Below, piece by piece: positions 4,580-6,522 of a stretch of 7,216 bases of DNA. Location of the stretch: IMG/VR virus record IMGVR_UViG_2548876935_000005; one strand, written 5' to 3'. This DNA comes from a virus (taxonomy: Duplodnaviria > Heunggongvirae > Uroviricota > Caudoviricetes). The notes under the pieces are model-generated. The model was not told where the DNA came from, did not search any database, and saw only the letters and a list, made by a program, of their open reading frames with translations. The translations under genes were made by a program, and so were the position numbers. Every line of letters starts with the position of its first letter. The stretch's first letter is position 1.

Positions 4580-4713
4580 CAGAGGATGGGACTCTCTTGG
4601 TTTTTTGTTGATGCTTTCTGAGGAAATCTACTACGTTGCTGAGCAGATGAATATTCAATTGCATCTGGGTTCCTGATAAGATTAATCTGAATATTTTCAT
4701 TTGGAATAGGGAT

Positions 4714-5856
4714 ATGAATAAAACTTTAATTGCAACATTAGTCGGTATAGTAATGTTAACCGGATGTGGGCCAGAAGAGTTAACTCCAGAACAGAAACAG
4801 GAAGTAGCGGCTCTTAAAGCTGAACTGTCGCAAACGGAAGGTGAAATATCAGCAGCTAAGGAAGTTGACCAGCAGTTTTCTGGTGGGTTGATAAAAAATC
4901 TGACAACAGCAAGACTGGAAATATTAGGAACTAATAAAGCGCTTTTGGAACAGCGTATTAATGCTATTGAATCAGGTGCCAAAATTGATGTTGTTGTATC
5001 TGGAGTAAAACCTGATCCTGAGCTTGCGGCTTCAATTAAAACTGAAATTGACAGCTTAGATGCAAAAATCAACGAAGCCAAAGCTGATGCTCGTCAGTAT
5101 AGTGGTGGTCTGATAAAGGTACTAAAATTATCTACTGTTGCCACTGAAGAGCAGACCATGGCAATGTTGCAGCAAAAGTACCTCACAGCCAAGTATGGCC
5201 TCGCTGAAGTTAAGCTGGCATCAGTACAAGATAATGACGCAAAAAACAGTACTGAAACGGAAGTAACAGCCAAAAATTCCCAAGGGCAACTTCCTTTACT
5301 CCCGCCAGCGGATGGTCCGTTTGGCTTAGAAGCCGGTCTTACACAGAAAAACATCGAAGATATGATCGGTGCTAAGCTCAAGCCACTACCAGACAGTGTG
5401 AATCTGTATACTTCTGATAAATTACCGAAGCAAAACGCAGATTTTGAAATGTATGGTTTGTTGATCTCCCCGAAAGCTGGTTTATGTCAAATACGGGCTT
5501 TAGGAAAAAATATTGATACTGATAGCTATGGATTGGCTCTTAAATCCAAGTTTGAAGAATTGAGTAATTCTTTAAGTTCTCTGTATGGAAAGGCTGATAC
5601 TACAGACTTTTTGCTGGCTGGTTCAATTTGGAAAGATCCTCAGGACTGGATGAGGGGGCTAAACAAAAAAGAACGCTTCTTATCTGCCACATGGAAGGGA
5701 ACAAAAGAAATACCATTAAAAAACAATATCGATACTATCTCTATTGAGGCCAGAGCGAACAATTCCACTCAGGGATATGTCTATCTGCAGTACTCATTTA
5801 CAAATGACGAAATTTGTCAGGAAGAAATTGAAGGGGCGAAAAAAAGTTCCCTTTAA
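4714..5856 (+). CDS. lipoprotein with internal tandem duplication, unknown function (380 aa)
   Basis: Signal peptide MNKTLIATLVGIVMLTGC with lipobox LTGC; the Cys codon is 4765-4767. Two diverged repeats of about 75 aa share a SGGLIK core (4879-4896 and 5101-5118). The C-terminal 200 aa or so match no family I recognise. GC is visibly lower than in flanking genes. Confidence 0.8.
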   Translation: MNKTLIATLVGIVMLTGCGPEELTPEQKQEVAALKAELSQTEGEISAAKEVDQQFSGGLIKNLTTARLEILGTNKALLEQRINAIESGAKIDVVVSGVKPDPELAASIKTEIDSLDAKINEAKADARQYSGGLIKVLKLSTVATEEQTMAMLQQKYLTAKYGLAEVKLASVQDNDAKNSTETEVTAKNSQGQLPLLPPADGPFGLEAGLTQKNIEDMIGAKLKPLPDSVNLYTSDKLPKQNADFEMYGLLISPKAGLCQIRALGKNIDTDSYGLALKSKFEELSNSLSSLYGKADTTDFLLAGSIWKDPQDWMRGLNKKERFLSATWKGTKEIPLKNNIDTISIEARANNSTQGYVYLQYSFTNDEICQEEIEGAKKSSL

Positions 5857-5867
5857 ACAATCCGTGC

Positions 5868-5896
5868 AAAGCCCCTTAGTAAGGGGCTTTTATATA
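5868..5896 (+). terminator. rho-independent terminator-like hairpin
   Basis: Perfect 10-bp stem AAAGCCCCTT (5868-5877), loop AGT, AAGGGGCTTT (5881-5890), followed by the T-rich tail TATATATT. Begins 12 nt after the lipoprotein stop. Confidence 0.6.
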
Positions 5897-5920
5897 TTAA
5901 TGTTCAACGGGGGGGATTAG

Positions 5921-6244
5921 ATGAAAGATAATCTAGAAAAACTAATTGAAAATACTTTAAAAGATATTCTATTAGCTAATGCTGCTCTAACATTCATTTT
6001 TGCAATACCAATGGCTATTATCAGTAGGCATGGGATGGGCATCACAATCTGGTTTATAACTGTGCTCATTGCACCTGCTCTGTGTGCAGTAGGTGCATGG
6101 CTTGTATCTCGAACATTCGGCCATGCTGAGGAGTTCTTTCATCGTCGGTGGGCTAAGCGAATCTATGTTTTTTATACTCTTGCGGCTGCCGAGTTTTTGC
6201 TTGTGTACTCAATCGCGCAAATAATGAAAAATCTGATGAAATAA
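5921..6244 (+). CDS. small integral membrane protein, three predicted TM helices (107 aa)
   Basis: A G-rich RBS (GGGGGGG) lies 5 nt upstream of ATG 5921. Three hydrophobic segments of about 20 aa (around residues 16-34, 41-62 and 80-100) are separated by short charged loops. Confidence 0.7.
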   Translation: MKDNLEKLIENTLKDILLANAALTFIFAIPMAIISRHGMGITIWFITVLIAPALCAVGAWLVSRTFGHAEEFFHRRWAKRIYVFYTLAAAEFLLVYSIAQIMKNLMK

Positions 6245-6449
6245 TTAACAAGTTATTATCATGGGGTTTGTGGCTGTTAACCTGCAGTGAGGCGACAATC
6301 GTGTATTTATAAAAACTTCCCCTTTTCACTCCCCGCTGTTTCTTCTGCTATTTCCTTTATGTTTGCATGCAGCAACATCTGCCATACCTTTGCAGAAAAA
6401 TCAGAGCATTTAGTGCCGAAGGTTGGTTTATTGATGCTTTTTGTTTCAT

Positions 6450-6503
6450 TTATTGCAATTATCGATGGTATTATTTCAATTTGTGCAATAATTGCAATTA
6501 TTG
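6450..6503. promoter_or_regulatory. operator-like palindromes: 18-bp perfect palindrome CAATAATTGCAATTATTG (6486-6503) and a related ATTGCAAT core (6452-6459)
   Basis: I verified the 18-mer as its own reverse complement. It lies 20 bp upstream of ATG 6523, with a second copy of the core about 39 bp further upstream. Confidence 0.45.
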
Positions 6504-6522
6504 TCATTCAGAAGGGATCATC

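Follow-up and report, generated by a model that had tools for sequence, protein, structure and literature searches.

A mobile lipoprotein gene of a new family in a phage satellite of Escherichia coli, with a candidate role in superinfection exclusion

Introduction

What does a lipoprotein gene of low guanine-plus-cytosine (GC) content do inside a phage satellite? The question is raised by a stretch of 7,216 nucleotides from the IMG/VR record IMGVR_UViG_2548876935_000005 (the whole stretch is called the window below), which open reading frames (ORFs) and profile searches resolve into a single array of co-oriented genes. In it, a gene for a lipoprotein precursor of 380 amino acids (aa; the gene and its product are called LP here; 4714-5856, plus strand) stands before a gene for a 107-aa protein with three transmembrane segments (3-TM; 5921-6244, plus strand). 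An earlier note on this DNA had read positions 4580-6520 as separately acquired cargo, and the two genes as one candidate module for superinfection exclusion or abortive infection at the envelope. Our analysis firmly establishes the LP gene as a mobile, self-contained accessory gene that is traded among satellites and temperate phages, and its product as a modular protein that carries the sequence marks of export and lipid anchoring and whose family has not been described. Superinfection exclusion by LP is a reasonable hypothesis, which we favour tentatively. The earlier interpretation is therefore partly supported: it holds for accessory envelope cargo, and fails for a two-gene abortive-infection or exclusion module in a defence hotspot.

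Anatomy of the LP protein

The N-terminus of LP, MNKTLIATLVGIVMLTGC, reads as a signal peptide with a lipobox LTGC (aa 1-18; 4714-4767, plus strand), and the lipobox residues L15-T-G-C18 agree with the pattern [LVI][ASTVI][GAS]C that follows a signal peptide in lipoproteins. G17, C18, and G19 are invariant in an alignment of 26 LP homologs, and C18 is also present in eight prophage or satellite copies. The sorting of lipoproteins by the Lol system is governed by the residue at position +2; in LP this is Gly19, which predicts sorting to the outer membrane.

Behind the lipobox, the mature protein contains an internal duplication (aa 32-81 against aa 105-154, 34% identity, pairwise E 9e-9) that lies within two repeat units. 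Unit 1 (aa 24-97; 4783-5004, plus strand) consists of a helix, a YSGGL-type loop, a second helix and a short strand, and is followed by unit 2 (aa 100-168; 5011-5217, plus strand). A poorly conserved, low-confidence linker ending in LLPP (aa 169-200; 5218-5313, plus strand) then leads to a C-terminal alpha/beta domain, the "GPFGL" domain (C-domain; aa 201-380; 5314-5853, plus strand). The AlphaFold2 model of full-length LP is of moderate quality (pLDDT 65); it has two helix-loop-helix-strand units, at aa 25-97 and 102-168, and a disordered linker (pLDDT <50 over aa 162-203) whose columns are variable in the alignments. The C-domain was modeled with a pLDDT of 96.7. Two of its residues, C258 and C368, are invariant both in the 26-homolog alignment and in the prophage and satellite copies, consistent with a periplasmic disulfide between them. 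Together with the lipobox, and with the transmembrane helices of the 3-TM protein, these cysteines make the predicted envelope location well founded, as the earlier note had proposed. The other parts that it had read by eye (the 380-aa lipoprotein with its LTGC lipobox, a duplication of about 75 aa, a hairpin terminator, and a three-helix protein of 107 aa) are likewise all present in the sequence.

Neither protein was recognized as a member of a known family, as had been suspected: Pfam, NCBIfam, PHROGs, and PADLOC gave nothing significant for LP or the 3-TM protein. PADLOC-DB v2 returned no family at E ≤1 for these two or for the neighboring small ORFs; AriA/AriB and bSEFIR, detected in sibling islands, served as the positive control. 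A sequence search of the PDB with the full-length LP profile matched only designed antiparallel coiled coils, on repeat 1, the corresponding profile search with the C-domain gave no match, and a Foldseek search of the PDB with the full-length model gave nothing below E 0.03. We found no paper naming the accessions of LP or the 3-TM protein, and the papers that we checked on phage-inducible chromosomal islands (PICIs) of E. coli and Enterobacter mention no lipoprotein. Envelope proteins encoded by morons (autonomous mobile units, see below) are known already; it is the family and the architecture of LP that have not been described before.

Relatives of the stalk and of the C-domain

A profile search of 1.84 billion cluster representatives retrieved 2,848 relatives of LP (clusters at 50% identity). 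Among the best 150 of the 2,848, both modules were found in 33, only the N-terminal stalk (the two repeat units) in 38, and only the C-domain in 79. Other tails, of at least five types, replace the C-domain in 26 of the 38 stalk-only relatives, and one of these is VasI of the type VI secretion system (T6SS). For example, the stalk proteins P0185, P0189, P0184, and P0190 present unrelated C-terminal domains on the same two-hairpin stalk, forming a polymorphic "stalk plus head" superfamily. None of the unknown domains of the LP family is listed in Pfam, and ten of the stalk proteins with alternative tails have no Pfam domain. Most of the relatives that have only the C-domain are secreted proteins of about 200 aa in which GPFGL comes directly after the signal peptide; some of these stand-alone genes lie on rhizobial megaplasmids or chromids.

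Among viral structure models, the best Foldseek match of the C-domain is a lipoprotein (A0A5Q2F5G3; E 5.7e-7, TM-score 0.61) of Midgardsormr38, a temperate lambda-like siphophage of Erwinia (PMC7317114), and further phage lipoproteins rank below it. The two proteins share the fold of the C-domain over nearly its full length (177 columns) and both are lipoproteins, but the Midgardsormr38 protein has only 182 aa, lacks the stalk module, is 16% identical, and is likewise uncharacterized in function; the match thus widens the C-domain family without explaining what it does. A broader fold comparison listed values of 6.4 for RhsI1, 6.1 for PA1624, 6.0 for START, 5.9 for YdcD, 5.8 for DUF4309, 5.7 each for SciW, DcrB, and PsbP, and 5.4 for TsiN. 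With the Mog1/PsbP-like sandwiches (DcrB, the DUF1795 protein SciW, LpqN, and PsbP) and with RhsI1, YdcD, and TsiN, the C-domain shares a general topology, an antiparallel sheet packed on helices; several of these proteins are periplasmic lipoproteins or protein-binding modules.

The variety of heads on one stalk admits a reading of LP as a periplasmic inhibitor or "orphan immunity" protein, whose C-domain would neutralize an enzyme or toxin active in the periplasm (for example a lysozyme, a phage tail lysin, or an effector of the T6SS or colicin type), as MliC/PliC and Tsi/Tai proteins do. The fusion of an LP-type stalk to a VasI domain in another protein and the polymorphic pattern of the alternative C-domains fit such a role, as do the very large size of the stand-alone C-domain family and an Enterobacter plasmid on which the genes for a colicin-like bacteriocin and the matching immunity protein are found some 3 kb away from LP. 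RhsI1 and YdcD, however, act in the cytoplasm, and no cognate toxin gene adjoins LP in any of the satellite or prophage contexts examined. We consider an inhibitor of this kind decidedly unlikely.

LP is a self-contained mobile gene

LP has the attributes of a moron in the sense of Juhala 2000, as summarized in PMC3594210, because it combines a deviant GC content, a promoter-like element, a terminator of its own, and presence/absence polymorphism. The GC content of LP is 40.2% (32.8% at third codon positions, GC3), against 55.9% for the neighboring PerC gene, 58.9% for the ProQ/FinO gene, and 48.6% for the primase gene; the 3-TM gene has 38.6% (GC3 32.4%), and the region 4580-6520 as a whole has 39.4%, compared with 48.6% for the remaining window. 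The compositional contrast first noted for the two genes thus holds on the low side, but it was somewhat exaggerated: the 57-63% then given for the replication gene came from favorably chosen lines, that gene has a lower average, and only the ProQ/FinO and PerC genes are GC-rich.

The leader of LP (4580-4713, plus strand) contains a block that is conserved in an alignment, and a blastn breakpoint at 4624 marks the start of homology to copies in unrelated contexts. The leader also has an extended -10-like motif, TGATAAGAT, at 4674-4682, 40 nt 5′ of the LP ATG. In upstream and downstream sequences drawn from 78 full-length LP copies, TGnTAnnnT (TGnTAGGAT) recurs at about -40 in 28 of 40 distinct upstream sequences, as opposed to 3.9±1.7 in shuffles, and is kept whatever gene lies further upstream; we infer that it acts as a promoter. 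A consensus promoter scan called no -35 element in the LP leader. At the other end, the LP transcription unit is closed by a predicted hairpin resembling an intrinsic terminator (5868-5890, plus strand; 10-bp stem and T-rich tail), and of the 37 distinct downstream sequences 29 have a hairpin followed by a T-run, where shuffled sequences have 0.1.

Presence and absence are equally clear. There are sibling islands with ProQ and PerC that lack LP, and LP itself is found in satellites, in phage tail modules, and in Mu-like prophages. In E. coli and Edwardsiella loci without ProQ/PerC, homology to the window begins at 4624, just after PerC, and runs to 7162 (blastn), so that the block that moves together in other contexts extends from 4624 to at least 7162. 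Separate acquisition within the satellite is therefore supported by GC content, by the breakpoint at 4624, and by the varied contexts; the right boundary at 6520 is not, since the travelling block continues well beyond it and 6245-6522 is a spacer upstream of the next gene, orf55.

Distribution and genomic contexts of LP

Among 5,426 complete E. coli genomes, 113 have the LP cassette region, in every case on the chromosome, and 231-321 have the ProQ-PerC core. The slot after PerC in sibling islands, whose variability the earlier note had proposed to check, proved variable: it holds the LP cassette, NUDIX plus DUF2213 genes, DUF1441 plus TerS genes, or nothing. HUSEC2011, a representative of the O104:H4 outbreak lineage, has the cassette after a different (DUF927) primase. 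Beyond E. coli, LP homologs are patchily distributed over Enterobacterales, with 60-89% identity across genera, and each has a "hypothetical" annotation. Islands of Enterobacter, Pantoea septica, and Lonsdalea have LP directly after a Zn-ribbon/Toprim/DUF927 primase, and a Tatumella island has it after a D5-type primase; in islands with integrase and AlpA, the primases upstream of LP thus belong to at least two unrelated types. In Xenorhabdus, LP lies in the tail cluster of a lambda-like prophage, between the tape-measure gene and gpM.

A scan of IMG/VR identified 52 viral contigs with LP, which we classed by tblastn of marker genes, ORF maps, and Pfam/PHROGs searches. About 31 are satellites (17 E. 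coli-type PICIs and about 14 satellites with a DUF927 primase), and in about 16 LP adjoins the gene of the tape-measure protein (TMP) within a siphophage tail module, in most cases between this gene and the tail-assembly-chaperone genes; two contigs are Mu-like prophages, and one has LP after tail-fibre-like genes. The prophage copies retain the whole architecture. Two of the tail-module lineages have, ahead of LP, a divergent S24 repressor together with Bro/Ant/Rha antirepressors (the repressor, CI/LexA-like, and the antirepressors span 4102-7869 in contig L078, which also encodes a Doc/Fic toxin, and 5425-7869 in L080).

Several single loci add detail to this distribution. Two near-identical LP-type satellites sit in tandem at one site in Enterobacter hormaechei (L005, 1653-21140). 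In another satellite (L002, 9615-9944), short tandem repeats such as AACCAACTGAACC between the DUF927 primase and LP are probably the iteron origin of that element. One prophage contig shows decay, LP being frameshifted into ORFs of 132 and 247 aa (L085, 8001-9151). A plasmid of Enterobacter cancerogenus (L041, 9001-15579) carries an LP copy of 86% identity, with an Abi-family gene on one side and a colicin-like tRNase bacteriocin and its immunity protein on the other.

LP also persists where the mobile element has decayed. In Yokenella and Pseudenterobacter it adjoins proA with no integrase or primase, and one chromosomal copy in Pantoea has no integrase, primase, or other marker of a mobile genetic element within 10 kb. 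Occurrence in non-mobile chromosomal surroundings, which would speak against the cargo interpretation of the earlier note, is therefore real for this one Pantoea copy, while the family is otherwise patchy and overwhelmingly on mobile elements. Retention in these remnants suggests a benefit to the host, and with it a second reading, in which LP is a lysogenic-conversion or host-fitness factor without relation to phages: a lipoprotein of the outer membrane that changes envelope properties such as resistance to serum, adhesion, tolerance of stress, or conjugal surface exclusion, like Bor of lambda or TraT of F. The moron anatomy speaks for this as well, the conservation of LP across genera is high, and its neighbor PerC is a virulence-associated regulator that Gram-negative PICIs commonly carry (PMC6092414; PMC11773190). 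But LP is unlike the Bor, TraT, and Lom families, its predicted periplasm-facing topology suits roles in serum resistance or adhesion less, and its repeated placement beside TMP genes, together with its structural relatives among phage lipoproteins, fits a phage role at least equally. On balance we regard a host-fitness factor as unlikely.

The 3-TM gene is a lineage-restricted companion

The 107-aa protein has hydrophobic segments at about aa 15-36, 37-66, and 81-101. Only 17 homologs were found, and in every context examined (E. coli, Edwardsiella, Klebsiella, Citrobacter, and E. ruysiae) the gene lies directly 3′ of a 380-aa LP gene. Most LP genes, in prophages and in other satellites, have no 3-TM neighbor. 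The orf55 homolog comes straight after LP in the islands of Pantoea septica and Tatumella, and therefore the 3-TM gene and the spacer 6245-6522 look like a later insertion. In Yokenella (L023/L039, about 11206-11508) the 3-TM copy is degraded beside an intact LP, which indicates a one-way dependency: 3-TM needs LP, and not vice versa. Judged from its sequence and neighbors, the 3-TM gene looks like a lineage-restricted add-on to LP. Two 107-aa proteins encoded near the Pantoea chromosomal LP were considered as homologs and rejected; they are unrelated, with two hydrophobic segments each.

These observations bear on two readings in which the genes would act as a pair. The first is a two-component abortive-infection module, with LP sensing phage in the periplasm and activating the 3-TM protein to depolarize the inner membrane. 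Small multi-transmembrane effectors are common in abortive-infection systems, and the 3-TM gene occurs only directly downstream of LP. Yet LP ends in a terminator of its own and in most places has no 3-TM partner, so that the single two-gene module of the earlier note falls apart; the loss of 3-TM in Yokenella left LP intact, and PADLOC is blank for both proteins. Nothing else points to abortive infection, and we rate it very improbable. The second is a role in the life cycle of the element, such as lysis control with an o-spanin-like LP and a 3-TM protein resembling a class I holin, or interference with the helper at the envelope. The 3-TM protein does match a class I holin in size and in its three transmembrane segments, and two Mu-like prophages have LP just upstream of an ORF that reads as a GH108-like endolysin. 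Its C-terminus, however, is short ("KNLMK") and lacks the charged tail, no holin or spanin family in Pfam or PHROGs matches, the island has no endolysin, and LP, a monocistronic unit, is found in non-mobile remnants and tail modules rather than in lysis cassettes. A lysis or life-cycle role is the least probable of all. The evidence against each led us to reject the spanin/holin and the abortive-infection readings alike.

The host element is a PICI-type satellite

Positions 1-7162 of the window are 99.9% identical to a locus in E. coli N1420, in which the complete element can be seen. The island adjoins tRNA-Thr and proA, and starts with genes for an integrase, a 265-aa hypothetical protein, AlpA (PF05930, E 2e-19), AntA, a YlcI-like protein (on the opposite strand), and an Icd-like protein; after the genes of the window come those for a 175-aa helix-turn-helix protein and for unknown proteins of 275 and 259 aa. 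The 3′ end of the tRNA and its flank are repeated about 14.6 kb downstream, just 5′ of a truncated second integrase, giving attachment (att) repeats at about 4787 and about 19365 of the N1420 locus (L001). In the window, the spacer between the primase and ProQ/FinO genes (3384-3752) has direct and inverted GGTAGACAGTT iterons surrounding an AT-rich core, the layout of replication origins in E. coli PICIs (PMC6092414), and is very likely the satellite's origin. No structural or lysis genes are annotated in the N1420 island.

The element thus has an integrase by the att site, AlpA, a primase-replication (pri/rep) module with an iteron origin, and a size within about 10-15 kb, and lacks structural and lysis genes; by all features that can be tested in silico, it is a Gram-negative PICI-type satellite of about 14.6 kb. 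It occupies the same proA/thrW position, beside the MarR-Vat island, as EcCIMP1, an experimentally verified PICI at the proA/yagU (thrW) site beside that island (PMC11773190). A sibling island in E. coli ERL06-2503 (L014, 5448-15335) lies inside the terminase large-subunit gene of a prophage, a helper-embedded PICI configuration (cf. PMC10111431), and encodes a fusion of a ClpP-like protease and a major capsid protein.

A candidate role in superinfection exclusion

The explanation that we favour, while granting it somewhat less than an even chance, is that the LP moron is expressed from the quiescent element and that its product, anchored in the outer membrane, blocks the entry of superinfecting phages by means of the tethered C-domain. 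LP would leave the cytoplasm through Sec and receive its lipid at Cys18; the Gly at position +2 would then direct it to the inner leaflet of the outer membrane. The two-hairpin antiparallel stalk and a flexible linker of about 35-40 residues would hold the compact, probably disulfide-bonded alpha/beta domain in the periplasm, where it would bind a component of the envelope or of the incoming phage, so that genome delivery is blocked. Candidate targets are the periplasmic face of a receptor (as for T5 Llp on FhuA) and the tape-measure or ejection machinery (as for Ltp and HK97 gp15). The 3-TM protein would be a later, lineage-specific addition in the inner membrane that depends on LP and may serve the C-domain as partner or anchor. 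No evidence so far points to an unexpected mechanism.

Several observations weigh against exclusion. The role is a prediction; no characterized exclusion protein resembles LP in sequence or closely in structure, Cor, Llp, Ltp, TraT, and Bor included, and tblastn against 50,697 deposited phage genomes gave no LP match. Its conservation at 60-89% identity across genera is unusual for an arms-race protein. The stand-alone secreted C-domain is far more widespread, reaching distant phyla (79 of the best 150 among the 2,848 clusters), which suggests a more general periplasmic activity, and the Pantoea chromosomal copy stands apart from any nearby marker of a mobile element. Adjacency to TMP genes may reflect merely a permissive insertion site.

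Position within the island counts on the same side. The recognized defence systems of sibling islands sit not in the internal LP slot but in a terminal one, after orf175: PARIS in HUSEC2011 (AriA E 5e-43, AriB E 4e-22) and bSEFIR in Citrobacter (E 1e-113). LP is in a different slot and therefore borrows no credibility from a known defence hotspot, contrary to the placement first proposed. In N1420 the terminal slot (L001, 17500-19107) holds the unknown 275-aa and 259-aa proteins, for which the sole PADLOC match is marginal (to PDC-M02B); because siblings carry PARIS or bSEFIR in that slot, these two proteins are better placed than LP as candidates for a novel defence system.

With these reservations, superinfection exclusion at the envelope remains the explanation we prefer for LP. 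A bolder form of it, that LP founds a new and widespread class in which an outer-membrane stalk presents an interchangeable effector against the siphophage ejection apparatus or the periplasmic face of a receptor, we hold to be doubtful; if true, the GPFGL domain, with its roughly 2,800 clusters (50% identity), would form an unseen, polymorphic repertoire of envelope defence together with the other C-domains on the stalk. Exclusion at the envelope is the least catalogued layer of anti-phage activity, its proteins being small, diverse, and invisible to finders based on hidden Markov models. LP offers a concrete candidate that is easily cloned and cheap to test, and it is common to satellites and to prophages of siphophages, which are known as helpers of such islands. 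Should LP exclude phages, a large unannotated family of periplasmic domains would gain a function, and one more case would be on record of cargo moving between PICIs and helper-type phages; should it exclude nothing, LP would still stand out as a lysogenic-conversion lipoprotein of unusual mobility and conservation.

Other features of the window

The 5′ part of the window contains an Icd-like gene and small ORFs. Within one ORF (572-1060), N1420 has about 78 extra bases (L001, 10204-10282) relative to window positions 861-871; an 11-bp overlap of the blast pieces at this point suggests that a short sequence was tandemly duplicated or deleted. A DUF4222 gene (1291-1581) and the primase-helicase gene (D5_N/DUF5906/Pox_D5; 1578-3383) follow, then the AT-rich origin spacer (369 bp), whose GC content of 28.7% is even below that of the LP/3-TM cassette, and then the ProQ/FinO gene (3753-4295) and the PerC gene (4292-4579).

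Downstream of the 3-TM gene, the AT-rich spacer 6245-6522 (36.6% GC, not assigned to a strand) is probably the regulatory region of the downstream operon and lies outside the LP unit. The palindrome ATAATTGCAATTAT occurs in it twice (6447-6503), 39 bp apart and just 5′ of orf55, in an operator-like arrangement; RefSeq places an antisense ORF of 66 aa at 6307-6507, and there are two promoter-like sites on the minus strand. The backbone genes orf55 (6523-6690) and orf90 (6687-6959) and the 5′ part of orf175 (7059-7162), with an N-terminal HTH_17 domain, are all on the plus strand. In the source of the window orf175 is cut at 7162/7163 by the end of an IS66-family element (ISEc8-like), which makes up the final 54 nt (7163-7216); the gene is intact in N1420, with 175 aa. 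A search of the entire window against Rfam found zero RNA families.

Comparison with known systems

As an element, the island resembles the PICIs EcCICFT073 and EcCIMP1, which likewise have int, alpA, and pri/rep with an iteron origin, followed by PerC and accessory genes (PMC6092414; PMC11773190), it also has the expected size, and shares its att site with EcCIMP1. The main texts of both papers mention no lipoprotein, and helper-phage-dependent induction and packaging have been demonstrated for EcCIMP1 (PMC11773190).

For LP itself, three systems offer close comparisons. Gene 15 of HK97, the first and archetypal moron, lies in the chaperone-TMP slot and encodes gp15, a superinfection-exclusion protein (PMC3594210). 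Gene 15 and LP are both independent transcription units of deviant GC content with an envelope-located product, and both use that slot, LP in about 15 prophage contigs; but gp15 is a small YebO-like inner-membrane protein without sequence relation to the 380-aa LP, and exclusion has been demonstrated for gp15 and is predicted for LP. T5 Llp and Cor of phi80 and N15 are outer-membrane lipoproteins of mobile elements that face the periplasm, as predicted for LP, and Llp acts from within the periplasm to jam FhuA, its receptor (PMC9586334). They differ in being small, single-domain proteins of about 60-80 aa with no detected homology to LP, in which a linker joins the coiled-coil stalk to a domain of 180 aa. 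Ltp of the Streptococcus thermophilus phage TP-J34, expressed from the prophage, combines a lipid anchor, a spacer, and a repeat domain, and targets the TMP (PMC3952083). The lipid anchor, the spacer, and the tandem-repeat module recur in LP, but Ltp acts in a Gram-positive host, has no sequence similarity to LP, and uses its repeats, which have another fold, as the active domain; in LP the repeats look stalk-like, and the globular C-domain is the likely effector.

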